Positions 3,111 to 64,000 of a DNA stretch of 64,000 bases are shown one piece after another. Where the stretch lies: positions 10,481 through 74,480 of IMG/VR virus record IMGVR_UViG_3300032087_003094. The stretch is one strand, 5' to 3'. Position 1 is the first letter of the stretch; the number at the start of each line of letters is the position of its first letter. This DNA is from a virus. A model generated the notes under the pieces. That model was not told where the DNA came from and did no database searches. It worked only from the letters and a program-made list of their open reading frames with translations. The position numbers and the translations under genes were made by a program.

Positions 3111-3530
3111 GTGAACACTAACCTGACAGACAAGCAAAGACGCTTTGTAGAATTTTATTGTGGTGAATGTAAATTTAACGCAACTCAAGCAGCTATTAAA
3201 GCTGGGTACAGTAAAGCATCTGCAGATGTGATTGGATGTGAGAACTTAGTAAAACCTAGTATACAAAAAGCAATACAAGCTTTTATGGATAAAGTAACAG
3301 ATGAGGCTCTAGTAACGACAGAATGGGTAGTAGAAAGGCTTAAACTTGAATCAGAGAGGGATGATGAAGGGTCAAGTCATTCAGCTCGTATAAGCGCTCT
3401 TGGAAAGCTTAGCGACTATACCGGCGGATTTGATAAGAATAAGAATCATACTGTTCACTCTGGCTCTGTAGGATTTAAAGATATCACCCAAATGACAGAT
3501 GAAGAGCTCGAAAACGAACTCAATCAGTAG
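3111..3530 (+). CDS. terS: Terminase small subunit (module A)
   Basis: LTDKQRRFVEFY..NATQAAIKAGYS motif of the Terminase_2 family. Confidence 0.9.
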   Translation: MNTNLTDKQRRFVEFYCGECKFNATQAAIKAGYSKASADVIGCENLVKPSIQKAIQAFMDKVTDEALVTTEWVVERLKLESERDDEGSSHSARISALGKLSDYTGGFDKNKNHTVHSGSVGFKDITQMTDEELENELNQ

Positions 3531-3796: not shown

Positions 3797-4092
3797 TGAC
3801 AGGGGTGACATTTGACAGAGGCCTTTTAATATGGGTTGTTGGCGAGAGGCAGCATTATGTTAAAGGCATGATGAGAGCCATCGATAAAGCTAGGAATCCA
3901 AGTTTAATTTATGATAAACGCTTCTCTAAAACCGACGGGCTTCGAGTTATACGATCATTCGAGAGAGTTAACGAAATACCATTTGACCCCTACAACAAAA
4001 CGCACCTTCTTTACATCTCAAGGATGGCTGGGCACGAACACTTTTTCAGAAGGTTTAAAAAAGTTATGCAGGAAGCTGGATTGAGGGGGTAA
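3796..4092 (+). CDS. Hypothetical protein (likely start 3796)
   Basis: TAATG coupling with the upstream peptide. Confidence 0.6.
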   Translation: MTGVTFDRGLLIWVVGERQHYVKGMMRAIDKARNPSLIYDKRFSKTDGLRVIRSFERVNEIPFDPYNKTHLLYISRMAGHEHFFRRFKKVMQEAGLRG

Positions 4093-10321: not shown

Positions 10322-11587
10322 ATGTCTAGTACAGGTAAGATTGTAGAAGTAATGTTTGAGTCCGCGTTAGAGACTTACGAAACCCAAGACATGATGCTCC
10401 CCTTAACGAATTTCTTTGAGCCGGAAGCGGGCGACATGCAGAACTCGGGCAACTTTATTTGGCGCCCAGTCCAGCAACATGCACCAATTATCGACGGCTG
10501 GGATTTAACAGGGTTAGAAACTGATATTATCGAGGAGACCTATCCTGCGATTCTAGGAAGCCCTAAAAATGATTTTGTAGAGCAGCGTGCTGATGATTTG
10601 CGTGATATGACGTTCTGGAAGCGCAGAGGCGAGCAGTCTGGTAGGCGTCAAGCGTCTAACCTTAATCAAACTATCGCGACAGCAGTGGCCACACAAGGCT
10701 CCTTATTCTATCGTGATGTAGCATCGACCAGTGGTTATGATTTCATTGCTCAAGGTCAAGCTATCATGAATGAGAGGCAAGGCGCTCAAAGTGAAAGATG
10801 TTACGTTCTTAATGATCGCTCAACACTTCGTTTTGGTCAGGATTTAGCAGCCAGACAAACTCTTCAGGGTCGCCCTGCGGAAACTTGGAACACTGGTCAA
10901 ATCGGCCAAAATGTAGCCGAGTTTGATGTCTACACTGGCTCATATTTGCCAAACCTAGTAGGCGGTGCAAATCCAGCAACTACCGTAACAGGAGCACAAT
11001 CATTCGCTCCAGAAGGTGGAACGGTTGACGCAGCTACCGGCGTTTGTACTAATGTTGACTATCGTTCAGCAGAGATTCCGGTCGCAGATTCAAGCGGTTA
11101 CAATATTGGAGACAAGGTTACTATTGGCTCTCTTAATGCTGTTGGTCTTGATGACAAAACCGACACTGGTGAGTTGATGACATTCACTATTGTGGCAAAA
11201 CCTTCAGGAACCAGTATCACTGTATATCCTAAACCCATTGCGGCTGATGATGCGGCATTATCAACTTTAGAAAAGGCTTATGCTAATGTTAATACAACAA
11301 TTGCAAACCTTGATACAGTAGATCGTTTAAATACAGACGCTTCAGCAAAAACCAATTTATTTTGGGATAAAGACGCTGTTGAGGTTCTTGGTGGCAGCAT
11401 TCCAGCCAACTTGTTTAAAGAGTTTGACGGCATGAAGGTTGTTTCTAGCACTATGAGCAACGGTCAGACTATGTACATGGTCTACGATGGCGACATTGCT
11501 AAAATGACATTCAGATACCGCTTATTCACTTGGTTTGGCGTGACAATTGCCAACCCTAGCCAGTGTGGTGTTTCAGTATCAGGCTAA
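10322..11587 (+). CDS. Major capsid protein, P22 coat (gp5) family
   Basis: 421 aa; WRPVQQH; I-domain-like insertion (GDKVTIG..LMTFTIV..ITVYPKPI). Confidence 0.9.
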   Translation: MSSTGKIVEVMFESALETYETQDMMLPLTNFFEPEAGDMQNSGNFIWRPVQQHAPIIDGWDLTGLETDIIEETYPAILGSPKNDFVEQRADDLRDMTFWKRRGEQSGRRQASNLNQTIATAVATQGSLFYRDVASTSGYDFIAQGQAIMNERQGAQSERCYVLNDRSTLRFGQDLAARQTLQGRPAETWNTGQIGQNVAEFDVYTGSYLPNLVGGANPATTVTGAQSFAPEGGTVDAATGVCTNVDYRSAEIPVADSSGYNIGDKVTIGSLNAVGLDDKTDTGELMTFTIVAKPSGTSITVYPKPIAADDAALSTLEKAYANVNTTIANLDTVDRLNTDASAKTNLFWDKDAVEVLGGSIPANLFKEFDGMKVVSSTMSNGQTMYMVYDGDIAKMTFRYRLFTWFGVTIANPSQCGVSVSG

Positions 11588-24986: not shown

Positions 24987-25014
24987 GCCAATAAAGAATA
25001 TTGCTTAAAGCCGC

Positions 25015-25063
25015 AAACCCGCTCGAAATTAAATTTGACAGCGGGCATTATTTTATCTATCCT
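25015..25063 (+). promoter_or_regulatory. Late/early boundary: hairpin overlapping a sigma70 promoter; copy 1 of the 31-bp direct repeat
   Basis: CCCGCT..AGCGGG inverted repeat enclosing TTGACA; TATCCT 17 nt downstream; 25015-25045 identical to 60131-60161. Confidence 0.75.
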
Positions 25064-25092
25064 ATTACTACAGTAATTAATGAGGAGTCAGA

Positions 25093-25272
25093 ATGATAAA
25101 GAAAAGAGGTCCAAAACGATTAACCGAGGATGAGCGCAGAAAGCGATTTCAGATGGTTGTATCGCCAGCTACATCAGAGTGGCTAGAATCTCAACCTGAG
25201 GCCGCTGGAAGGGTTGTAGATAGGTTGGTAGAGAATCATCGAATCAAACAAGACTACGACAGTAAGGGGTAA
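25093..25272 (+). CDS. Small ribbon-helix-helix-like regulator (59 aa, not in ORF track)
   Basis: MIKKRGPKRLTEDERRKRFQMVVSPATSEWLESQ; GAGGAG RBS. Confidence 0.6.
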   Translation: MIKKRGPKRLTEDERRKRFQMVVSPATSEWLESQPEAAGRVVDRLVENHRIKQDYDSKG

Positions 25273-25275
25273 ATT

Positions 25276-25389
25276 ATGAATAACGAGCAAGATAACGCAA
25301 CAGAGGGTCAAGTAAGCCTATTATGGCTAGGATTAATTGCGCTAGGATTTTGGTTAAGCGCATTATTTATAGGGTGGTTAGTGTCATGA
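25276..25389 (+). CDS. Small membrane peptide (37 aa)
   Basis: MNNEQDNATEGQVSLLWLGLIALGFW..; homologue at 60414-60539. Confidence 0.65.
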   Translation: MNNEQDNATEGQVSLLWLGLIALGFWLSALFIGWLVS

Positions 25390-25835
25390 GAACCATTCAA
25401 AGCAGAATACAGCACTGTAAAAACAGAGTTCCGATCGCCGCGCCAAAAGTTGAAGAAAGCGCAAAGCTTCAAGCTGATGTGGACGCGTGGCTAGCGAAGG
25501 GTAACGAGATTTACGACGCTGATAAAAAAGAGGCTAATTTCAGGAATGATATTGAAAAATCTCGAGCCTACAAAAGGCGCACCAAGCCAGTATTAAACCT
25601 ATCCATGTGGCGCTTTAGAGGTGAAGATACCATCCTAACCACTAAAGATATGGTCAGAGTTTTAGAGTGCTCCAGCGATTGGGTTGTGACTGAATACACT
25701 AAGAAACATCTTATTCCAGCGCCCTATAAAATCAGAGATTTAGATGGAAAAGTAAAAATAACCAAGAAAAATCACAACGCCAACTATTGGAAGTTAGGCG
25801 ATTTAATTAAACACAATAAGGAGCTAGAAAAATGA
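25386..25835 (+). CDS. Hypothetical protein with C-terminal AlpA/Xis-like winged HTH (likely start 25386)
   Basis: ILTTKDMVRVLECS..IPAP..NYWKLGDL; near-identical copy at 60536. Confidence 0.6.
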   Translation: MRTIQSRIQHCKNRVPIAAPKVEESAKLQADVDAWLAKGNEIYDADKKEANFRNDIEKSRAYKRRTKPVLNLSMWRFRGEDTILTTKDMVRVLECSSDWVVTEYTKKHLIPAPYKIRDLDGKVKITKKNHNANYWKLGDLIKHNKELEK

Positions 25836-26437
25836 GACAATCAACCGAACTAAGCAACTTAGTCGCTAGGCACCTGCAAGGCCAAGTACCACCTACCGTA
25901 GTCAACGAGTTTAACAAGCTAATTGTAAAAATGCGTAAAGATGAATCAACTATTGCGGATGCTGTGGATAAGTTTGAAGCTATCCACAACCCTCAAGTTG
26001 GAGCAAACAACCTAAACGGTGAAATTCTTAAGGGGAAGCTTTTTGAAATTTAGACTTGAATCGCTCGTGAAGAGCTACAACAAGCCTAAGAAGCGCGATA
26101 TAGAGAAAGACGTAGAAGTTATCGATTTAGAAGAGAAAACGCCGTCAGAGCCAGATTTCGAGCTTGCTGACGCCATGATAGAGTATTCTAGGGAGAAATT
26201 ATGAAAGATGCTATTTTAGTTGTGCTAATTGTCTTTACGGCTGCTCTTAGCTTTATCTTTGGTGCGATATGGGAGCAGAGGCAAAATTTCAAGAAAGGTC
26301 GCCAACCAACATGCCAAAGCGAATTAAAAGACCCATGCCAAGAGATACACGGGTTAAACACTAAAGGCATGCGAGATTACAAGCCTAAGTATGACCGTAA
26401 TTTAAAACAAGTAGTATTAACATGTGAGGTGGAGTGA
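25832..26437 (+). CDS. Three small coupled genes (25832-26053, ~26019-26204, 26201-26437 membrane-anchored QPTCQSE protein)
   Basis: Homologues in the second copy (61200-61781); overlapping start/stop codons. Confidence 0.65.
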
Positions 26438-26665
26438 TGAGAAGCGCGATAATCGGGTTTTGTATAGGCTTATTGGCTACAATGATTGCTTTTCTAGCGG
26501 TTCTCACTTTCAGGTTTCTGTTGATTGTCAATTTTGGCGACCCGCAGCAGCCAACATGCCAAAGCGAATTCAGCCAGCAAATCAACCAGTATCGAGTATG
26601 GCCAGAATATCCCACACAAGGGAAAGCGGCCTAATCGAATAGTCATTGAATGCGAGGATAAGTAG
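26434..26665 (+). pseudogene. Frameshifted membrane-anchored QPTCQSE protein
   Basis: Indel near 26578 relative to intact 61569-61781; KSTSIEYGQNIPHKGKRPNRIVIECEDK continues in another frame to TAG 26665. Confidence 0.65.
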
Positions 26666-27668
26666 ATGAAAATAGAAACGAGAGCAACTTTATATGATTG
26701 GGTAGAGTTTAAGGTTGAATGTGGTAGCACAGTAATTAACGAGGATATTCATCCAGAGCAGGCGGCCGACCTAATTGAGCAGCTTGAAAGCGCTATAGAC
26801 GATCTAAAAGGGCTAGCTAGAGAGGTTGATGTTGAAGAGATATTCGCAGGGACCAGAAAGAAAGTCGAATCTTTAAATATTAGAGGATAACAAACAATGA
26901 GCATAGAAAACCATAAGTGGAGTGATGAAGATTTAAGTCTTTTTGACACCTCTGAATCTGAATATGCAGGGTTATTATTTAGCCTAAGATGCAATTCTAT
27001 CATGAGTTCGTTTAGCGATTTTTACATCAACAAACAAGACGCCATAGCTATAGCCAAACACTTTAACGTAGACAATGAGTCTCTAGTGGAGGGTATAAAG
27101 GAGTTGATTAACTCTGTTGACTGCTCGTCTTGCTGCCCAAACACAGAGGTATTCTCAATTGACGACCTACAAAAACTAATAACTAAGGAGGATATAGAAG
27201 AATGAGTAATGTAATAGAGTTTCCGCAAACTGATGTTGAGTATATATTCAACAGTACTGGCGAAATTGTAGAGTCAATTATCATCGATTTATCAAGACTA
27301 AAAAGCATCGAACTAAGAAGGGATGAGTCAGACGAAGTCAGAGGCCGCATAACTAGACTGTGTATTGCTTGGCTAGCTTTAGAGAATCCAGAGGTATTAA
27401 ATTTTGATGATGAATTAAATGAGGAGGATGGAGAGTGAATGATATAGAGTTTATTATCTTGTGGTTTTTGTCTGGATTTTTGCCATTTTTATTATCAGGG
27501 ATTGTGATGGAATCAAGAAGCCCTAAAATTGATTTTGAGTTGGTGTCGCTTTCGATTTTGTCTGGCGGCTTTGGATTTTTATCGTTTTTTTTATTTTTTC
27601 CAGTATTTATATTTATTTGCTTCCAAAGGGTATTCTTTTTTATTAATGATAGGAGGGCTAGACAATAA
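26666..27668 (+). CDS. Four small hypothetical genes (26666-26890, 26897-27205, 27202-27438, 27435-27668 membrane protein)
   Basis: Good RBSs; 26897 and 27435 have homologues at 61958 and 62441. Confidence 0.7.
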
Positions 27669-27686
27669 CCAAGAATGAGGTATAAT
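27659..27686 (+). promoter_or_regulatory. Sigma70-like promoter of the non-coding cluster
   Basis: TAGACA-16-TATAAT, identical in the second copy (62664-62691). Confidence 0.7.
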
Positions 27687-27692
27687 TAAAAG

Positions 27693-27829
27693 GCTGATTG
27701 AAACCGGCGTCAAGAATCACAAAACGAGAAAGAGACTTTAAGTAAGAATCCAGAAGCCTAGTTGTTAAATCGTTTTGTGTAACTAGAGATGCTTGTTTCA
27801 ACTGGGTTCTTTCTTAAGGTCTTTTTTTT
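27693..27829 (+). ncRNA. P4-CI/P1-C4-like antisense/attenuator RNA, copy 1
   Basis: Long interrupted stem ending in U8; loop TCGTTTTGTG pairs with CACAAAACGA 27718; bulge GTTTCAA pairs with TTGAAAC 27698; compensatory changes in copy 2. Confidence 0.7.
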
Positions 27830-27851
27830 CGCCTCAAGTTTCCTCAGTAAA

Positions 27852-28350
27852 TAGATGATATATGTGGTGGAGTTAGTTGTAACCGTGGCGCGCGGATATA
27901 GTTACATGCTGGCAATGGCCTTATTCAGTTGACTAGACCGGCCTAGCTCCCCTTCATATATCATCTACAATTAGCATATCAACGACCACTTGTCACAGAT
28001 TGGGTTTAAGTCCCTTTTGGAGATAACTGGCGGGAATATTAATTCCGACGATGCCGTTTCAATAGGTGACGTTGATATGCTAATTGACAAGTCCTTAAGA
28101 ATTTAGATTCTTGTTCAGCAAAAAATGAAAATGAATGCCTATAGCTAAAGGCTTTAAACAGCAAATTTACAAAGTTTTACATTTTCTACTTATCACTACG
28201 ACATTTAGACCGTGGACAAAGCAGGTTAAGTTGATGTGCCAACTATCTTAAGCTGGATATCGGAGCGACAACTCTAAAAACTGTTCTGCATATTGAGAGT
28301 GATAAGAATATAGATTTACCTTTATATCAACTAAAGGTCTAATGACCACT
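27852..28350 (+). ncRNA. Tandem stem-closed structured RNA-like domains, copy 1
   Basis: Closing stems 27852-64/27955-67 (13 bp), 27968-84/28070-86 (17 bp), 28189-97/28298-306 (9 bp); no ORF. Confidence 0.55.
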
Positions 28351-28370
28351 ATTAACTAAAGGAAAACAAT

Positions 28371-28628
28371 ATGAAAGTAGAAGAAACACTGAAAGAGCGA
28401 GGAGAGCGATACGGAAGCTTTGATGGTTATGCACTGCAATTAGAAGCATTGAAAAATGCGGTTGATTTGGAGGCTTCGTCACTTAATTGTGTGCACAAAG
28501 CCGGAATGGAGATGATATTAACTAAAATAGCTAGGATTATGAATGGCGATCCTGATTATGTTGATAACTGGCATGATATAGCTGGATATGCAACATTGGT
28601 AGAAAGAGATATTGAAAAGAATTTTTAA
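28371..28628 (+). CDS. DUF6378-like phage protein
   Basis: TLKERGERYG..KIARIMNGDPDYVDNWHDIAGYA; copy at 63604. Confidence 0.8.
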   Translation: MKVEETLKERGERYGSFDGYALQLEALKNAVDLEASSLNCVHKAGMEMILTKIARIMNGDPDYVDNWHDIAGYATLVERDIEKNF

Positions 28629-28647
28629 CTAAATAGGAGATAAGAGA

Positions 28648-29324
28648 GTGATAGCAAACGTAATGGTAAAAAAGAATATTGATGTTAAGTACCTAAAGGT
28701 TTCGGCGAATGTTCGATATTGGGGAGATTCAGAAATTAACGGCGAAATGTCAGATGATGAAGGTGAGGGAGTCCCGTTTAAAAATGCAGAGTTATGGGAG
28801 CCTGTCATTGATGTTGATAAAGGGGCGGTTTGTGACTGGCCTATTGGTACTGTAGCAAAATTTCATTTTAAGGTTTGCGATGCTGGCAGTTACTATTTGT
28901 TGGATGATAACTTTAATGAATTGTTATCAAGGGTAAATAATTACGTTCCTGACGGTTTATGTCATGGCGATGAAGGATATGGGGATTATATTATTTTTGA
29001 TGTAGGGCAGGACGGCTGTATAGTTAACTATTCAAATAAAATTAATATTGAAGATTGGGAAGGAGAGCAATAACAATGAGTAACAAGTGTAAAAATTGTG
29101 ATTCAGGTATTTATTGCCATGATTGCGGGGTGTGTGGAGAGTGTCACACTAGAAAGATATGGGTATTAAAAGAGCAAATAGAGCAACTACAAAAAGAGAA
29201 TGAGGAAAGCTTTAGAAAGGGTTTTTGGGCTGGATATGAAGACGCTAGATGCTTTCCTGATGAAAATAACATATTGCAGCGCTATGCAGCTCTGACTGAA
29301 AATAGGAATAGCAATGACCAATAA
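28648..29324 (+). CDS. Two hypothetical genes (28648-29073; ~29076-29324 with CxxC/CxxH zinc motif)
   Basis: First is repeated at 63881; second has CKNC..CHDCGVCGECH. Confidence 0.65.
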
Positions 29325-29354: not shown

Positions 29355-29453
29355 TATAATACATATACGCGGCTAGGTTTAGCGACCGAAAAACAAACCC
29401 CTTATTTGTTTGCCGCTCATATTTCATAAGGGCTGATGCTAAAGGAGCGTTAA
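29355..29453 (+). ncRNA. C4-like two-loop antisense RNA with downstream targets at the RBS
   Basis: TATAAT; GCGGC/GCCGC closing stem; TTTAGC and CCCTTAT in the two loops are complementary to GCTAAA 29438 and ATAAGGG 29426, next to AAGGAG. Confidence 0.7.
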
Positions 29454-29967
29454 ATGATAGATCTAAAAACCTGCACAAGAGCCGATTTTATAGAGGCTTA
29501 CACAAATCTAGAAAACTCTCACAAGCACCTAGAAAGCGAAGTTCATCATCTTAACGAGCGCCTGCAGGAATACGAAGGCATTCAAACTGATGATGAAAAG
29601 GAGGCGGAGTTTCAAAAAATTCTGGACGATGTACGAAAAGAAAGGAAATCTCAAAACTACCCGAACTAGGTGGAATAAGCTAAGCAATAAGAAAAAGAAG
29701 CTAATATTCGACCACCTGCCAAAGTATGTGAAATCAACCTACAAAGATGCTCGATACCCATCAAGAAAAAATGCAGAGGTCTACATTAGTAAAGAAGCAT
29801 GGCTTGATGAAATTATTGAGAATAAAGACTATCAGAAGTTTTCACCACAGCCAGCGGTAGGAAGCGCATCATTTAAACCAAGCCCGATAAAAAATAGAAG
29901 CAAGGAGCTAGATAGGCTTAGAGAGCAGAGTAAATCGGTTAACATTAAAGAGAGGTTAGGGTTATGA
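29454..29967 (+). pseudogene. Replication-initiator-like protein split by a frameshift in an A6 run
   Basis: Removing one A at 29614-29619 gives EAEFQKFWTMYEKKG..WNKLS, a motif typical of phage replisome-organiser C-terminal domains. Confidence 0.6.
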
Positions 29968-31308: not shown

Positions 31309-31884
31309 ATGAAAACAACATTAGGTAAGATTTGGGAGTTCGGTCCTTGCTGTAGAGAGGATGAGTCTGGCGGGTGGGGTTTGCTAACTAAAAACTTAGG
31401 AACTAGCGATCACTCAAAAGAAGTTGATTTGATGGAAATATTAAAATCAAACGGAATTAAAGATGCAGTTTGGGCTTTAAGATGTTTTGATTATCTTGAT
31501 TATTGCCTTTTTCTTGCTGATGTTGCAGAAAGCGTACTTGATATTTATGAGAAGAAAAACAGTTCAAGCGCTCCGAGATTAGCAATTCAGGCAGTTAGAG
31601 ATTATAAGGCTGGAGGTATAACAAAAGAAAAATTACGATCTGCTGCTGATGCTTATGCTGCTTATGCTGCTGCTGATGCTTATGCTGCTGCTTATGCTGC
31701 TGATGCTGCTTCTGCTTATGCTGCTGCTTATGCTGCTTATGCTGCTGATGCTGCTTATGCTGCTGCTGATGCTGCTGCTGATGCTTCTGCTGCTGCTGAT
31801 GCTTCTGCTGCTTATGCTGATGCTAGATCAAAAAAATGGGATGAAATAGAACAATTATTCATTAAGCATTTTGGAGATAAATAA
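31309..31884 (+). CDS. Phage protein with Ala/Tyr/Asp low-complexity tract
   Basis: ILKSNGIKDAVWAL and PRLAIQAVRDY motifs plus (AADAY)n. Confidence 0.8.
   Translation: MKTTLGKIWEFGPCCREDESGGWGLLTKNLGTSDHSKEVDLMEILKSNGIKDAVWALRCFDYLDYCLFLADVAESVLDIYEKKNSSSAPRLAIQAVRDYKAGGITKEKLRSAADAYAAYAAADAYAAAYAADAASAYAAAYAAYAADAAYAAADAAADASAAADASAAYADARSKKWDEIEQLFIKHFGDK
31640..31824 (+). repeat. GCT/GAT/TAT/TCT codon-level tandem repeat
   Basis: About 185 nt of nNT triplets, mostly GCT. Confidence 0.9.
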
Positions 31885-57671: not shown

Positions 57672-60127
57672 TGGCATATTTTCCAATTGCTAAAATATCA
57701 CCACAATATGACTCCGAAGAGTACGCTAACTGGTGGCTGAAAGCTTACACGCAAGGCACTACAACACCCATCTTGATGGCCTTGGATGCCGGAGGTGTCA
57801 CAACTGTTGCTAAGCTAGAGCTTAATGAGGACGGCTTTATTAATACGTCTGGCGATGCGATTGTAATCCCTTATATTAACGAGGCTTACGACTTATGGCT
57901 GTTTCCAACAGAGGCTGAGGCTGATGCTAATGATACATCTAACGCTATTCAATTGGCTGACAATATAGACCCAAGCAATACAGATAGTGGCAATATCGAT
58001 AAAGACAATATTTCAACCTATACAAATTACGAATTCTTAACTACTGCCGATATGGCTAGCGGCACACTATCAGACGGTAGCACAATAGTAACAATTAAAG
58101 CTGGCGATATTTGCAAAACTAAAGAATTTTCAACCGGTGATGGTGGGGGCGCGACTTATGATGTTATAGCTGGGACAGGAGCGGCCAACGGATACAATAT
58201 TATTGCTCACGATACGCTGAGCTTTAGTTTTGTATTAAGGGTTGATGATACGGTGATTTCAGATCAATTCGGAACAGTTGAGACGGGCGACACCACAGCA
58301 GCAATGCAAGCAGCAATAGACTATGCCGACGCTTTCAATATTGAGTTTGTTGAGGTTTCTGGAAGCTACACGGTAACCAATCTAACTAAGCTAAATACAG
58401 TAAAACTAGTTTCTGTGGATAAACTTTCTACTATAACTATAGGCTCGACAGTGTTCAATGTCCCTTTTAAATACCAAACAAACGGACCCACCAATCTATA
58501 TGTCGCCACAACCGGCTCTGATTCGACCAATTGCGGGTTCGACTCCACTGTTCCATTTGCAACCCCACAAGCAGCGACAAAGTATTTACCAACAAATATA
58601 GCCAACGATACTGTTATAAATTTAGCTGATGGAAGCTACGGGCCAACAGGAGGGCAGGCTGAGTTTGGGCGCCCTGCAATCTTAGATTTATCGATATTTA
58701 ACATTTCAGCGCTTAGAGACTCCAGCTTGCCATTAAATACAAAAGCCGGAAAGTTAATCATTAGAGGTGAAAGTGAGGCAGGAACGATACTTGACGGACA
58801 GAAGGCTGTAGGAACGCATACTGGCTCTAGTGGGGGTAGCGTTCTAATCGACTCAACTAAAAGCTTCACTGTTAATGAGCTTGTCGGTTATTACCTTGTA
58901 AACACTACAGACAACTCCAGCACAACTATAACCGCGAACACAGCCACAACGATAACTGGAACCCTATCAGGTGGCACCGATAATGATTGGGATGCCGGAG
59001 ACTCATATAAAGTTATGGCTAGATATGGCGTTTGGTCTCACGAGTCCCCAGGGGTTCAACTTGAAAACCTAACAGTTAAAAACTGTTACTTTGGAATTAT
59101 GGGGCATCAAAATGACGATATAACCTTAAGAGATGTAACTACTTCAAACTGTGTGTTTGGAAGAGGTATAGAGTCAAACTCCAGAATGGAGGTTTTGAGG
59201 GGTAGCAACGGCACAGCAAGCGAACCCAATACTAGGAATTATTTTATTAAAAACGGCCAACTCCAAGAGAATGACTCCAGCCAAGCCTCATTCACTGAAA
59301 ATGGATTCCTTATTGATGGCGACGCTTGGGTTTACTGTTTAAGAGTTGATATCGACTCAACCGCAAGCAAGAACACAATCAATTCAGCTGGCAAGGTTTG
59401 GATGGAGTTTGAGAATTGCAACATATACGGAGGTGGAAATAGCTTTGTCGAGGGTACTTATACAGAGCTTAAGTTTAGTAACGAGTGTAAAATTGGAGAT
59501 TTCACATCGTCAGTATTTTCCAATGAGGCTGGATATGCTCAAACGGATGGATTGTGCCATTTTTATAATAATAGTTTTTTGGCGTTCATAACTAAAGGTT
59601 CACCAACTTTCAATCTTGATAATTGTGATTCTACCGCTGCGTCTGGAACTCACGATGGATCTGGCAATGCGGCAATCTTAACAGACTCTGGTAAAAGTTG
59701 GATTGTTGATCAATTTGTCGGCTTAACTATTTCCAATACTACAGATGGATCAAGCGCAACCATTACTGCCAACACGGCCACGACAATAACCGGAACATTA
59801 TCTGGCGGAACCGACAATGATTGGGATGTATCAGACGCTTACACCGTCACAGGCGCAAACGCTAACGGCATAAGAATACAAGGCGGAGCCACGTCAGCAC
59901 TAATAGATCCAGACTGCACTATAACCAGCGCAGATAGGATATTATCAAGACCAACCTCTGGCCTTGTGCTAAAAGGCACAGCCGCCCCATCTGACGCGAA
60001 CTCATTTTACGAAAGAGGAACAATAGTGTTGAATGAAGCTGCCGCCGTAGGACAGCCCCAAGGCTGGATATGCACAACAAAAGGATATGGTGGTGTAGCA
60101 GTATTCACAGCAATGCCAAACCTGTAA
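57671..60127 (+). CDS. Tailspike/fibre with beta-helix regions and two inserted ~68-aa domains
   Basis: DTTAAMQAAID, LYVATTGSD..PFAT.Q.A, G..GTILDG; two LSGGTDNDWD copies. Confidence 0.8.
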   Translation: MAYFPIAKISPQYDSEEYANWWLKAYTQGTTTPILMALDAGGVTTVAKLELNEDGFINTSGDAIVIPYINEAYDLWLFPTEAEADANDTSNAIQLADNIDPSNTDSGNIDKDNISTYTNYEFLTTADMASGTLSDGSTIVTIKAGDICKTKEFSTGDGGGATYDVIAGTGAANGYNIIAHDTLSFSFVLRVDDTVISDQFGTVETGDTTAAMQAAIDYADAFNIEFVEVSGSYTVTNLTKLNTVKLVSVDKLSTITIGSTVFNVPFKYQTNGPTNLYVATTGSDSTNCGFDSTVPFATPQAATKYLPTNIANDTVINLADGSYGPTGGQAEFGRPAILDLSIFNISALRDSSLPLNTKAGKLIIRGESEAGTILDGQKAVGTHTGSSGGSVLIDSTKSFTVNELVGYYLVNTTDNSSTTITANTATTITGTLSGGTDNDWDAGDSYKVMARYGVWSHESPGVQLENLTVKNCYFGIMGHQNDDITLRDVTTSNCVFGRGIESNSRMEVLRGSNGTASEPNTRNYFIKNGQLQENDSSQASFTENGFLIDGDAWVYCLRVDIDSTASKNTINSAGKVWMEFENCNIYGGGNSFVEGTYTELKFSNECKIGDFTSSVFSNEAGYAQTDGLCHFYNNSFLAFITKGSPTFNLDNCDSTAASGTHDGSGNAAILTDSGKSWIVDQFVGLTISNTTDGSSATITANTATTITGTLSGGTDNDWDVSDAYTVTGANANGIRIQGGATSALIDPDCTITSADRILSRPTSGLVLKGTAAPSDANSFYERGTIVLNEAAAVGQPQGWICTTKGYGGVAVFTAMPNL

Positions 60128-60130
60128 TCT

Positions 60131-60179
60131 AAACCCGCTCGAAATTAAATTTGACAGCGGGTATTATTTTGCCTATAGT
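60131..60179 (+). promoter_or_regulatory. Late/early boundary hairpin and promoter; copy 2 of the 31-bp repeat
   Basis: TTGACA(60151)-17-TATAGT; 31 bp identical to 25015-25045. Confidence 0.75.
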
Positions 60180-60210
60180 GTTCGTAATCCAATAACAAAG
60201 TAGGTGCAAA

Positions 60211-60417
60211 GTGAACAATACGAGACGTCCAAACAATGTAAGAAAAATTAGGAGAGCGCAAGATTTTACGTTGCAATCCCTGGCTGATATGGTCGGCACT
60301 AGTAAAAGCTATATTCACGATTTAGAGAATGGAAATATTAGAAGTCCATCCCTAGGTAAGGCTAGATTGATAGCTATGAATCTTAATTCAACAGTTGACG
60401 AGGTATTTCCACAATGA
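60211..60417 (+). CDS. XRE/Cro-family HTH regulator
   Basis: TLQSLADMVGTSKSYIHDLENG..PSL. Confidence 0.9.
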   Translation: MNNTRRPNNVRKIRRAQDFTLQSLADMVGTSKSYIHDLENGNIRSPSLGKARLIAMNLNSTVDEVFPQ

Positions 60418-62683
60418 ATAACGAACAAGATAACGCAACAGAAGGTCAAGTAAGCCTACTGTGTTTAGCTGGCATAGGTTTACTGTTTTGGCTGATTGGG
60501 CTTGGTTTAATATGGTTTATAGGGTGGTTAGTGTCATGAGAACTATTCAGAGCAGAATACAGCACTGCAAAAACAGAGTTCCTATCGCGGCGCCAAAGAC
60601 CGAGGAAAGCGCAAAACTTCAAGCTGATGTGGATGCATGGCTAGCGAAGGGTAACGAGATTTACGACGCTGATAAAAAAGAGGCTAATTTTAGGAACGAC
60701 ATTGAAAAATCCAGAGCCTACAAAAAACGCACCAAGCCAGTGCTAAACCTATCTATGTGGCGCTTTAGAGACGAGGATACCATCCTAACCACTAAAGATA
60801 TGGTAAGGGTTTTAGAGTGCTCCAGCGATTGGGTTGTGACCGAATACACTAAAAAGCATCTTATTCCAGCGCCCTACAAAATCAGAGATTTAGATGGGAA
60901 GGTAAAAATAACCAAGCAAAACCACAACGCCAACTATTGGAAGTTAGGCGATTTAATCAAACACAATAAGGAGTTATCGAAATGAATAATGGAGATATGC
61001 CAATAAATGCCACATCGCCAAACAAGCATCAACCAGAATGGGCAGCGGCTAGAGTTGGAGGCCTAACCAAGAGAGAGTATTTCGCAGGGCTGGCCATGCA
61101 GGGCATGCTATCAAGTTCGGATTACGCCACATCCACATGGAATACTGTGGCTATAGAGGCTGTAGAGGTCGCAGACGCACTACTAAAGGAGCTAGAAAAA
61201 TGAGGCAGTCAACTGAACTAAGCAACTTAGTCGCTAAACACCTGCAAGGTCAAGTGCCACCTACAGTAGTTAATGAATTTAACAAGCTAATTGTAAAAAT
61301 GCGTAAAGATGAGTCGACCATTGCGGACGCTGTGGAAAAATTAGAAGTTATCCACAACCCTCAAGTTGGAGTAAATAACTTAAACGACGAAATACTCAAG
61401 GGGAAGCTCTTTGAAATTTAGACTTGAATCGCTCGTAAAGAGCTACAACAAGCCTAAGAAGCACGATATTGAGAAAGATGTAGAAGTTATCGATTTAGAA
61501 GAGAAAACGCCGTCAGAGGCCGATTTCGAGCTTGCTGATGCTATGATAGAGTATTATAGGGAGGAATTATGAAAGATTTGTTACCAGCGTTGATCCTTGT
61601 TTGGCTTGGGGGTTTTTTCTTCGGGGGCGCTGTTTTTGGTGATTTTGAAAAACCCAAGCAGCCTACATGCCAAAGCGAATTCAACCAGAAAGTTAAATCA
61701 ACCAGTATCGAGCATGGTCAAGATATCCCACACAAGGGAAAGCGGCCTAATCGAATAGTAATTGAATGTGAGGGTAGGTAGATGCTATTTAATAACGCTG
61801 CAAAGGGTAGGTTAATGAGCGGATTTGACGCTGAATTTATTGAAGCATCATCTCGCGATCTTGCTAAAAGAGAGATTGAAGACTTCGAGCTTGATTTATT
61901 CAACGCTAAAATTAGATCTATACAGCTTGCAAATTTAAAGAAAAAGGATAACAAACAATGAGCATAGTAGAGTATGATTTTAGCGATGATGAGTTAAATT
62001 TCATTAATTGTGATTCAGATGTAATCCAATTAGAGGCTCTTGGGTATAGCGATTGTTATGATAATGAATGCTTCATTGACATCAGAAAACAAGACGCCAT
62101 AGCTATAGCCAAGCACTTTAACGAGGATAGGGAGTCTCTAGTGGAGGGTATAAAGGAGATGATTTACAAACTTGAAAATAAGACGCGTGGAGGGGTAAGT
62201 TTGCAGGCGTTAATGACTCAGCACTCACAAACAGATGAATTTATTGGCGACCTACAAAAACTAATAACTAAGGAGGAATAGAAGAATGAAAGCCAATATG
62301 ATAGTTAGGATTTTAGGCGCTATAGCGTTGATGTATTTTGTTTATCAAGAGACTGGCTGGGCTACAACTATTTGCTTGTCGTTTATCACTCTTCAGGTTG
62401 AGCTTTCAGAGTATATCAACAAGTTAAGGAGGAATAGAGAGTGAATGATATAGAGTTTATTATCTTGTGGTTTTTGTCTGGATTTTTGCCATTTTTCTTA
62501 TCAGGGATTGTGATGGAATCAAGAAGCCCTAAAATTGATTTTGGGTTGATCTTGCTTTCGATTTTGTCTGGCGGCTTTGGATTTTTATCGTTTTTTTTAT
62601 TCTTCCCAGTATTTATATTTATTTGCTTCCAAAGAGCATTCTTTTTTATTAATGACAGGAGGCTAGACAATAACCAAGAATGA
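60414..62683 (+). CDS. Second mosaic copy of the early small-gene run (60414-60539, 60536-60985, 60982-61203, 61200-61421, 61569-61781, 61958-62281, 62441-62683 and others)
   Basis: Gene-by-gene similarity to 25276-27668 with swaps and insertions. Confidence 0.75.
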
Positions 62684-62698
62684 GGTATAATTAAAAAC

Positions 62699-62844
62699 GC
62701 TGAAATGAGACGCAGCAAAGATTTAAAAACACACAAACAGATAATAGAAAGACTTTAAGAGAACTCAGAAAGCCTAGTTGTAATTCGTTTGTGTGTAACT
62801 AGATCAAGCTTGTCTCAACTGGGTTCCCTTAAGGTCTTTTTTTT
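62699..62844 (+). ncRNA. P4-CI/P1-C4-like antisense/attenuator RNA, copy 2
   Basis: GTTTGTGTGT (62787) pairs with ACACACAAAC (62729); GTCTCA (62812) pairs with TGAGAC (62706); U8. Confidence 0.7.
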
Positions 62845-62866
62845 CGCCTCAAGTTTCCTCAGTAAA

Positions 62867-63370
62867 TAGATGATAAGAATACAACAGCCAGTCCTGGGCA
62901 GCGAACGTGACTTAAAAAGGCCCACTTATATCATCTACAGTTAGCATATCAACGACCACTTGTCACAGATTGGGTTTAAGTCCCTTTTGGAGATAACTGG
63001 CGGGAATATTAATTCCGACGATGCCGTTTCAATAGGCGGCGTTGATATGCTAATTGACAAGTCCTTAAGAATTTAGATTCTTGTTCAGCAGAAATGAAAA
63101 TGAATGCCTATAGCTAAAGGCTTTAAACAGCAAATAACAAACTAATTTTTTCTGTCTCTAAGTTACGACTTTTGAGGGTGAGGATAAAGCAGGTTAATGT
63201 TGACATATTTGCCAATAACACGAGATTTAACAAATCAATAATCGGGCAAGGTCGGGGCGACACCCTAAAAATGTTCTGCATATCGTGAGCTTAGAGAATA
63301 ACAGAGAGAGGGTAAACTAAGTAGATCTTATTATAGGTCAACTCAAACCCTCATTAGACAACCTATAACT
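62867..63370 (+). ncRNA. Tandem stem-closed structured RNA-like domains, copy 2
   Basis: Stems 62867-75/62929-37, 62938-54/63040-56, 63155-68/63283-97. Confidence 0.55.
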
Positions 63371-63391
63371 TAATAACTGGAGAATAGAGGA

Positions 63392-63577
63392 ATGAAAATT
63401 AAAGTAACAGTAAATACAGGCTGGGCAAATTGTGATCATATTGATTATGAAGACCTGCCTAGCGATTGGGAATCACTAACAAGCAAAGAAAAAGGGAACT
63501 ATTTGCACGAAAGCGCGCAAATTATGTTAAATGAGCACTGTCAGGCGTACGCTGAAGTAGTTGACGACGAAGAATAA
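63392..63577 (+). CDS. Small acidic hypothetical protein, absent from copy 1
   Basis: GAGG RBS; lies between the non-coding cluster and the DUF6378-like gene. Confidence 0.7.
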   Translation: MKIKVTVNTGWANCDHIDYEDLPSDWESLTSKEKGNYLHESAQIMLNEHCQAYAEVVDDEE

Positions 63578-63603
63578 ACCCCTATTAACTAAAGGAAAAC
63601 AAT

Positions 63604-63861
63604 ATGAAAGTAGAAGAAACGCTGAAAGAGCGAGGTGAGCGATACGGTAGTTTTGATGGTTATGCTATGCAGTTGGAAGCATTGAAAAATGCGGTTGACT
63701 TGGAGGCTTCATGCCTTAATTGCGTTCACAAAGCCGGAATGGAGATGATATTAACTAAGATAGCTAGGATTATGAATGGCGATCCTGATTATGTTGACAA
63801 TTGGCATGATATAGCTGGATATGCAACATTGGTAGAAAGAGATATTGAAAAGAATTTTTAA
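63604..63861 (+). CDS. DUF6378-like protein, copy 2
   Basis: Differs from 28371-28628 at 2 of 85 residues. Confidence 0.85.
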   Translation: MKVEETLKERGERYGSFDGYAMQLEALKNAVDLEASCLNCVHKAGMEMILTKIARIMNGDPDYVDNWHDIAGYATLVERDIEKNF

Positions 63862-63880
63862 CTAAATAGGAGGTAAGAGA

Positions 63881-64000
63881 GTGATAGCAAACGTAATGGT
63901 AAAAAAGAATATTGATGTTAAGCACCTAAAGGTTTCGGCGAATGTTCGATATTGGGGAGATTCAGAAATTAACGGCGAAATGTCAGATGATGAAGGTGAG
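63881..64000 (+). CDS. 3'-truncated homologue of 28648-29073
   Basis: Nearly identical DNA to 28648 onward. Confidence 0.8.
   Translation, partial: MIANVMVKKNIDVKHLKVSANVRYWGDSEINGEMSDDEGE

Follow-up and report, generated by a model that had tools for sequence, protein, structure and literature searches.

A promoter-led array of stem-closed non-coding units with exchangeable contents in a phage early region

The question raised by this locus is what a phage does with a stretch of about 500 nt that lacks open reading frames (ORFs) and consists of consecutive units, each closed by its own inverted repeat. The DNA analyzed here (the window) is a 64-kb part of a 74.5-kb IMG/VR virus record and is made up of two differing but related phage genomes of ~35 kb, arranged head to tail, with every gene on the + strand and no integrase between them. 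The pair could be a true tandem, or the metagenome assembly could have fused two strains that occur together. The nearest relatives of the large terminase are found in siphophages of Pseudomonas, Aeromonas, Shewanella, Vibrio, and Escherichia (46 to 56% identity), and DNA of the phage is present in seawater metagenomes. The phage encodes homologues of Erf, SSB, NinB, and Rap and no RNase III. The early regions of the two genomes (25000-28650 and 60100-63900), which carry copy A and copy B of the array, are 88 to 98% alike, in patches.

In copy A, a 77-amino-acid ORF (27435-27668) precedes the non-coding stretch, and a DUF6378 gene (28371-28628) follows it. ORFs in 27669-28370 reach at most 47 amino acids, whichever strand is read, and none shows signs of coding; 27852-28306 is devoid of any credible ORF, in agreement with the ORF-free ~500 nt of the preliminary description. 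The GC content of the stretch is ordinary for the early region. In copy B, an additional 61-amino-acid DUF7167 gene (63392-63577, +), absent from copy A, lies between the array and the DUF6378 gene. Farther downstream in copy A, an int-alpA RNA motif (Rfam RF02996; 46 bits, gathering score 35.8) occupies 29366-29432 (+), directly 5′ of a weak replication-initiator-like ORF; the same motif occurs at an equivalent relative position (3431-3498) in the distant relative L007. A GCTGCTGAT/GCTTATGCT repeat with a 9-nt period (31610-31843, +) lies within a 191-amino-acid ORF, giving an Ala/Asp/Tyr-rich repeat protein.

Closing stems and interiors of the units

Unit 1 of copy A (27852-27967, +) is closed by a perfect 13-bp outer stem, TAGATGATATATG/CATATATCATCTA (27852-27864 paired with 27955-27967), which we call S1. 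Its inner part, recognized by alignment and a covariance model, is a member of a family that we call the G element, a constant irregular helix that here includes GGAGTTAG (27869-27876) and CTAGCTCC (27943-27950); the innermost ~66 nt are unlike those of any other member. Unit 2 (slot S4; 27968-28086, +) abuts unit 1 and has a perfect 17-bp stem, CAATTAGCATATCAACG/CGTTGATATGCTAATTG (27968-27984 and 28070-28086), around an 85-nt interior. It is followed by a conserved tail (28087-28166, +), recognized by its sequence conservation, and by unit S5 (28189-28306, +), with a perfect 9-bp stem, CTTATCACT/AGTGATAAG (28189-28197 and 28298-28306). We searched for perfect inverted repeats of at least 12 bp with loops of 30 to 260 nt. 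The real sequence (27840-28370) contains two, and any at all occurred in only 2 of 300 dinucleotide shuffles. Abutting units with closing stems of 9 to 17 bp, as first described, are therefore real, and stems of 13, 17, and 9 bp go far beyond chance.

The fold signal stems from the closing helices and not from what they enclose. With their stems, units 1 and 2 have fold z scores of −3.7 and −5.2; the interiors alone score +1.06 (copy A unit 1), +0.79 (copy B unit 1), and −0.39 (unit 2). The unit 1 interiors had been drawn as a branched fold in copy A and a pseudoknot-like fold in copy B, within a picture of elaborately folded domains; since the interiors alone are no more stable than shuffles, with z scores near or above zero, neither fold is upheld and the interiors contain no detectable structure. 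Because these interiors are shuffle-like in stability and mutually unrelated, they lend no support to folded functional cargo in the window's own units. Likewise, the tail had been described as a conserved triple-hairpin segment: its sequence is indeed conserved (97 to 100%), throughout in copy B and as far as 28134 in L006, L016, and L017, but 28087-28166 has a fold z score of +0.13.

Comparison of the two copies separates the stems from their contents. Copy B unit 1 (62867-62937, +) keeps the S1 stem as TAGATGATA/TATCATCTA (9 bp) around a 53-nt interior that is unrelated to that of copy A and is not a G element; copy B contains no G-element member at all. The claim that this stem is constant and its interior replaced is thus correct. 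Unit 2 behaves differently, as had also been observed: copy B unit 2 (62938-63056, +) is identical to copy A at 116 of 119 positions, and its 17-bp stem contains one G-U pair, generated by a change from CAATTAGC to CAGTTAGC opposite an unaltered GCTAATTG, which turns A-U into G-U. Across copy A, copy B, L016, and L017, 82 to 84 of the 85 interior nucleotides of unit 2 are identical, while the leaders of the same arrays are only ~81% alike, indicating either constraint on the unit 2 interior or its recent spread. An internal structure of unit 2 was considered and set aside, as the four near-identical copies have three variable positions without covariation. In all four copies, TGACAAGT (28085-28092), just past the unit 2 stem, is perfectly complementary to ACTTGTCA (27988-27995) inside the unit, and this complementarity could represent a pseudoknot or an alternative pairing.

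The S5 unit shows compensatory change in its stem. The S5-type unit of copy B (63155-63297, +) has a larger interior than that of copy A and is closed by the compensating pair TCTCTAAGTT/AGCTTAGAGA in place of the copy A stem, and a small inner hairpin changes from GGAG/CUCU in copy A to GGGG/CCCU in copy B. The S5 of L169 is 88% and that of copy B ~70% like copy A, and the three have a core in common.

Slots, cargo, and the G element in related phages

We gathered related arrays by means of the flanking protein, the unit 2 stem, the promoter word, the linker word, and both halves of the unit 1 core. This yielded the IMG/VR arrays L006, L016, L017, L119, L137, L142, L158, L164, L168, L169, and L171, as well as L070, a leader-only end. 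Their layout is promoter, leader, and terminator, followed by stem-closed slots in the order S3-S2-S1-S4-S5. The S3 stem reads TA(A/G)(A/G)C(C/T)TGTTTA... / ...TAAGCAG(G/T)(T/C)TA, the S2 stem AGTGTTTATA / TATAAACACT, and the S1 stem, across arrays, TAGATGATAT / ATATCATCTA; S4 is the unit 2 stem, and the S5 stem is that given above for copy A.

Within these slots the cargo changes. The S1 slot is occupied by a G element in copy A and L016, by the 53-mer in copy B, by tRNA-Arg(TCT) together with tRNA-Arg(ACG) in L006, by a tRNA-like RNA with the end GGTTCAATTCC...CCA in L137, and by a tRNA-Leu-like RNA in L158; in L017, the S1 unit is wholly absent and the linker continues directly into unit 2. 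G elements occupy S2 in L006, L119, L137, L142, L158, and L171, and a tRNA-Leu-like RNA (Rfam tRNA, 39.9 bits) does so in L016. The G element and the tRNA-Leu-like RNA therefore trade slots S1 and S2 between L016 and L006/L158, with a straight swap between L016 and L158. Ordinary tRNAs also lie within other closing helices (L164, 10816-10889; L168, 2701-2776), so that Rfam-grade tRNAs are enclosed in L006, L164, L168, and L016. The repeats enclose the tRNA genes exactly, and CCA directly adjoins the 3′ arm. L158 contains an S4-like stem with a different interior. The interiors do vary across relatives collected by their stems, and the exchange of contents between constant stems that had been proposed from two copies is seen in ~12 contigs, with four to five stem types in a fixed order and differing cargo. 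Distant relatives found through the DUF6378 protein (L007 to L015) have no non-coding array upstream of it.

Read on the + strand, stem substitutions become G-U pairs in S1 of L006 and L142 and in S4 of copy B, L016, and L017. When both strands were compared, helices containing G-U were in only ~2-fold excess on the + over the − strand, a weak difference that is also confounded by the excess of G over C. The tRNAs in the same frames (as we call the closing helices), the G-U and compensatory stem substitutions, and the common orientation of all units with a strong promoter together suggest that the units behave as RNA genes of the + strand, as had been proposed.

The core of the G element, as found in copy A unit 1 without the outer S1 arms, is TATRTGGTGGAGTT...AGCTCCCCTTCATATA, and its helix of ~24 bp reads UAUAUG-U-GG-U-GGAGUU / AGCUCC-CC-UU-CAUAUA, with fixed mismatches and with outer and inner ends that covary. 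The first alignment comprised nine members and was used to build covariance model R1; over its 23-pair helix, 98.6% of positions were paired and 8 pairs were compensatory. Run on 634 kb of phage DNA, the model finds 15 members and nothing else with an E value better than 0.01, scoring 49 to 105 bits on the + strand and at most 35 on the − strand. Positions 27846-27972 of the window score 88.4 bits with R1 on the + strand and 26 on the − strand and so belong to the family as defined. Over all 15 members, 97% of cells are paired and 8 of 23 pairs are compensatory; the covariation score was reached by none of 500 shuffles, and slid controls were 42 to 58% paired. The central 12 pairs are invariant except for one C-G replacing a U-G wobble; on the opposite strand, this near-invariant U-G would become an A-C mismatch.

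The interiors of the G elements, by contrast with their helix, have nothing detectable in common. They range from 50 to 149 nt (n = 15), their pairwise identity is 0.479, against 0.474 in shuffles, and their stability is like that of shuffles (mean z = −0.16, p = 0.38). Pieces of the D and T arms of the tRNA-Leu-like RNA are found in the L168 interior. Three G elements are solitary; they lie between ORFs of the same direction in L111, L141, and L163, phages that otherwise differ. A constant helix enclosing arbitrary content is the most unusual trait of the locus.

Metagenome assemblies gave a further view of the exchange. Contigs of four public runs were placed on 27600-28450, and their breakpoints coincide with the cassette edges set by the comparative data. 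One contig joins 27854 to 27971, with unit 1 cleanly missing as in L017; in others, the match is interrupted either between 27860 and 27957, at the inner edge of S1, or between 27875/6 and 27943/4, at the inner edge of the G helix. Exchange at the stems, as had been suggested, is thus reflected in contigs that break at stem and cargo edges. A 35.9-kb contig carries the 3′ arm of S2 and then unit 2 through S5 with five differences; because it comes from a run labeled with an organism and not as a metagenome, a culturable system may exist. A metagenome scan with the promoter word returned unrelated promoters only. Together, the comparisons establish the anatomy of the array, the covariation of its stems, the replacement of its cargo, and the presence of tRNAs in the same frames.

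Some contents of the related arrays deserve mention in their own right. The tRNA-Leu-derived RNAs (L016, 884-998, −; L158, 3265-3400, +; L169, ~10850-11030, −; L168, ~2250-2400, −) have differing inserts of up to ~130 nt in place of the anticodon and variable arms; their acceptor, D, and T arms remain, as does an encoded CCA, and they thus appear to resemble natural “tRNA scaffolds.” S3 cargos (L006, ~870-1100, +; L119, ~3860-4000, +; L168, 2567-2670, −) end in a T-arm-like GGTTCGAxTCC hairpin that abuts a 9- to 12-bp inner stem, and that of L168 gives a sub-threshold match to tRNA-Sec (27.5 bits); these may be long-acceptor tRNA-like RNAs of the kind described in PMC5389517. A non-coding module, CAGCTCGARTTAAG...GGRACCCTCACCGRCTTAA, lies 3′ of the S1 slot in L070 (1-100, −) and L137 (~330-480, + coordinates) and, judged from these two occurrences, appears to be another uncatalogued array family. 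Finally, a MUG113/T5orf172 (GIY-YIG-type) gene is found directly 3′ of the array in L017 (8465-9058, +), with equivalents in L006, L016, and L158, and is absent next to both window copies; its product is possibly a homing-type nuclease that promotes exchange.

Transcription, processing, and competing readings

A promoter-like site, TAGACA-16-TATAAT (27659-27686, +), matches 11 of 12 consensus positions and is kept 5′ of all related arrays; the copy B site (62664-62691, +) is 100% identical. It is followed by a 137-nt leader (27693-27829, +; fold z score −4.4), which likewise precedes all related arrays and ends in a long helix and a U-run resembling an intrinsic terminator, an end also recognized in the copy B leader (62699-62844, +) by comparison with copy A and the other leaders. 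Nine homologous leaders have a common structure, in which 10 of 26 pairs are compensatory. No further promoter-like site was found on the + strand in 27690-28371, that is, at or past the terminator, so transcription of the array would have to come by read-through of the leader terminator or from farther upstream. Given the strength of the terminator-like helix and U-run, the array is perhaps poorly transcribed unless read-through is regulated. A boxA-like antitermination signal in the leader was sought by eye and was unconvincing. Among the sequencing runs in which the locus occurs, no RNA run was listed.

Transcription, cleavage, and function of the array we infer as follows. With slightly more confidence than doubt, we regard the locus as an operon of co-transcribed stable RNAs in which leader-trailer helices serve as processing or end-protecting frames and also as recombination boundaries. 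The strong early promoter would drive the conserved leader with its terminator-like helix, and read-through would carry transcription into the row of RNA modules and on to the next protein gene (28371). Each module would be framed by its own 5′ leader/3′ trailer helix, as are 16S and 23S rRNA in rRNA operons. These helices would let the modules fold independently, would mark the cuts of host nucleases (RNase III at helices of about two turns, such as the G element, and RNase E or RNase P elsewhere), and would give the released RNAs paired, protected ends. End protection and the independent folding of neighboring RNAs are roles as plausible as RNase III cutting, and RNase E might cut at the A/U-rich ...AAAUAG linkers 5′ of each unit. 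Since several phages have these conserved, A/T-rich frames in common, recombination inside them would swap one cargo for another, and the replacement of cargo within frames would in turn produce the cassette-like pattern; most simply, the exchange would be homologous or microhomology recombination in the common A/T-rich arms. The cargo would comprise tRNAs and tRNA-derived RNAs in the relatives and, in the window, the G element with its free interior, unit 2, and the S5 RNA; that these last three act on host translation or tRNA-directed defense is our likeliest guess.

The properties of RNase III bear on this proposal. Escherichia coli RNase III requires a helix of at least 11 bp, and phage sites span two helical turns, with internal loops that restrict cutting to one strand and so leave a protective hairpin (PMC1540722). 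Against this standard of about two turns and at least 11 bp beyond the cut (PMC1540722), unit 1 of copy A offers 13 + 2 + 8 to 10 bp and unit 2 offers 17 bp. RNase III would therefore be a reasonable agent for the G helix, by analogy with such sites of about two turns and fixed mismatches (PMC1540722). The stems of copy B unit 1 and of S5 measure 9 bp, which falls short of the 11-bp minimum and makes RNase III an unlikely agent there (PMC1540722).

A bolder reading takes the helices as portable frames, the RNA counterpart of integron cassettes: any insert would be transcribed early, excised, and end-protected, and phages would load arbitrary RNAs and trade them through arm recombination. The loads would include tRNAs, tRNA scaffolds with replaced anticodon arms, and unstructured antisense or decoy RNAs directed against host defense or rival phages. 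Both the reading and its list of loads are doubtful in our judgment; the G element, with its invariant-core helix of ~24 bp around 15 unrelated interiors, would be the clearest case.

Other explanations give the interiors, or the RNA itself, no role. The helices might be mere intercistronic processing or stabilizer hairpins of an early mRNA, as in T7, with interiors that are filler and not cargo, the whole forming a long processed 5′ UTR of the DUF6378 operon. The mutually unrelated, shuffle-like G interiors are the main support for this view, and the solitary G elements, placed as T7-type sites are, and a helix geometry that fits RNase III (PMC1540722) agree with it. A pure hairpin, however, needs only a loop, and all 15 G interiors measure 50 nt or more and are never short; the near-identity of the unit 2 interior in four arrays with diverged leaders points to constraint, and genuine tRNAs sit in identical frames. 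We consider this explanation unlikely on balance. The same G interiors weigh the other way when the repeats are read as the termini of mobile or recombinogenic DNA palindromes, MITE-like or targets of the T5orf172 GIY-YIG-type nuclease, with RNA playing no part: copies of one MITE have a common interior, and here 15 of 15 differ. Clean-edged presence and absence (in L017 and at the joint of 27854 to 27971), what may be a TAG/ATAG repeat at the two junctions, the G elements at unrelated intergenic sites of other phages, and the MUG113/T5orf172 gene 3′ of four arrays are what such elements would leave behind. Yet every unit is on the coding strand, scores of the model drop sharply when the other strand is read, with A-C in place of the invariant U-G, and tRNA genes occupy the repeats exactly, with CCA at the 3′ arm; moreover, there is no transposase or integrase nearby, the window copies lack T5orf172, and the S1 arms occur nowhere in the window except in the arrays. 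This makes mobile palindromes improbable.

Least of all do we expect the hairpins to act as single-stranded or cruciform DNA, in a replication origin, in lagging-strand priming, or as a packaging signal. Such a role would suit long inverted repeats located in non-coding DNA of the early region, a weak replication-initiator-like ORF (29590-29967) lies 1.2 kb downstream, and DNA hairpins tolerate G-T pairs. The stretch, however, contains no iterons or direct repeats and is ordinary in GC content for its region, and tRNA genes occupy the same frames; an essential origin is unlikely because close relatives gain, lose, and swap the units.

Relation to known families and systems

Within 27690-28370, Rfam 15 returned no match, either at gathering score or at E values up to 10 (27400-28500 searched), and neither ARAGORN on the window nor cmscan (E up to 10, 27400-28500) found a tRNA in the window's own units; tRNAs are known only from the equivalent slots of relatives. 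Among the relatives' cargos, only tRNAs and int-alpA matched Rfam, and the G elements had no Rfam match. A blastn search of GenBank phages with 27640-28400 gave no match, and a scan of 185,579 species genomes with the 5′ half of the G element gave 44 chance matches, none of them accompanied by the 3′ half. The interiors are complementary to the window or to related loci only over 14- to 15-mers, at chance level. In the literature, we found no description of stem-closed arrays of this kind.

Several named systems were considered and rejected. The ORFs scanned next to the array contain no recombinase domain and all genes lie on one strand, which does not fit an integron cassette array. The 15 G elements have common termini and shuffle-like interiors and S1 arms occur at the array only, which does not fit a MITE or transposon repeat; the TAG/ATAG repeat at both junctions is ambiguous. 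There is no direct-repeat family and there are no iterons in 27690-28370, the repeats are inverted, and the pairs all differ from each other, which sets the locus apart from CRISPR and toxIN-type arrays. Inverted repeats are also a feature of retron ncRNAs, but no reverse transcriptase was found among the early-region ORFs scanned.

Likeness is found in part with several known arrangements. Like integron cassettes with attC hairpins, the units are ordered behind one promoter, are gained, lost, and shuffled, and are bounded by imperfect inverted repeats with a variable center; unlike integrons, the array has no integrase and no recognizable R′/R″ core sites, shows no sign of site-specific recombination, and carries its cargo as RNA inside the hairpin and not as an ORF beside it. 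Like T7 R1.1 and related RNase III sites (PMC1540722), the G element forms an irregular helix that spans about two turns, has fixed mismatches, and lies between genes or RNAs along the direction of transcription. By eye, the G helix has no sequence likeness to R1.1 or R1.3; the T7 sites end in a small loop, and every G element encloses 50 to 149 nt. A further likeness is with bacterial rRNA operons, in which leader-trailer RNase III stems surround 16S and 23S rRNA (PMC10250234). In both, a flanking helix encloses each RNA, the polycistronic precursor includes tRNAs, and a conserved leader follows the promoter. In the array, by comparison, the cargo is only 50 to 170 nt, several units stand in a row, the frames are reused, and the helices, with their putative cleavage, are 9 to 24 bp.

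The tRNA cluster of phage T4 includes small stable RNAs, species 1 and 2 (rnaC and rnaD); these RNAs, whose function is unassigned, and the tRNAs are co-transcribed and processed by host enzymes. The array resembles it as a putative phage operon mixing tRNAs with small RNAs; the two have no relation in sequence or through Rfam. To our knowledge, no account of the T4 cluster divides it into slots whose closing stems stay constant while their contents are exchanged.

Phage tRNA clusters are usually viewed as simple sets of tRNAs for codon supply or against host defenses. The array suggests a more general device, in which conserved leader-trailer helices act as exchangeable small-RNA slots behind one early promoter. 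Should the frames serve as adaptors for processing and stabilization, they would explain how many unrelated phage small RNAs are expressed and shuffled, and their constant arms would provide a sequence handle for cataloguing unknown phage RNAs in viromes. In kind, the locus would belong with known phage tRNA and stable-RNA operons having rRNA-like processing stems; within it lies an uncatalogued RNA family, the G element with its 15 members, which combines an invariant helix core with wholly unconstrained contents, an unusual combination.
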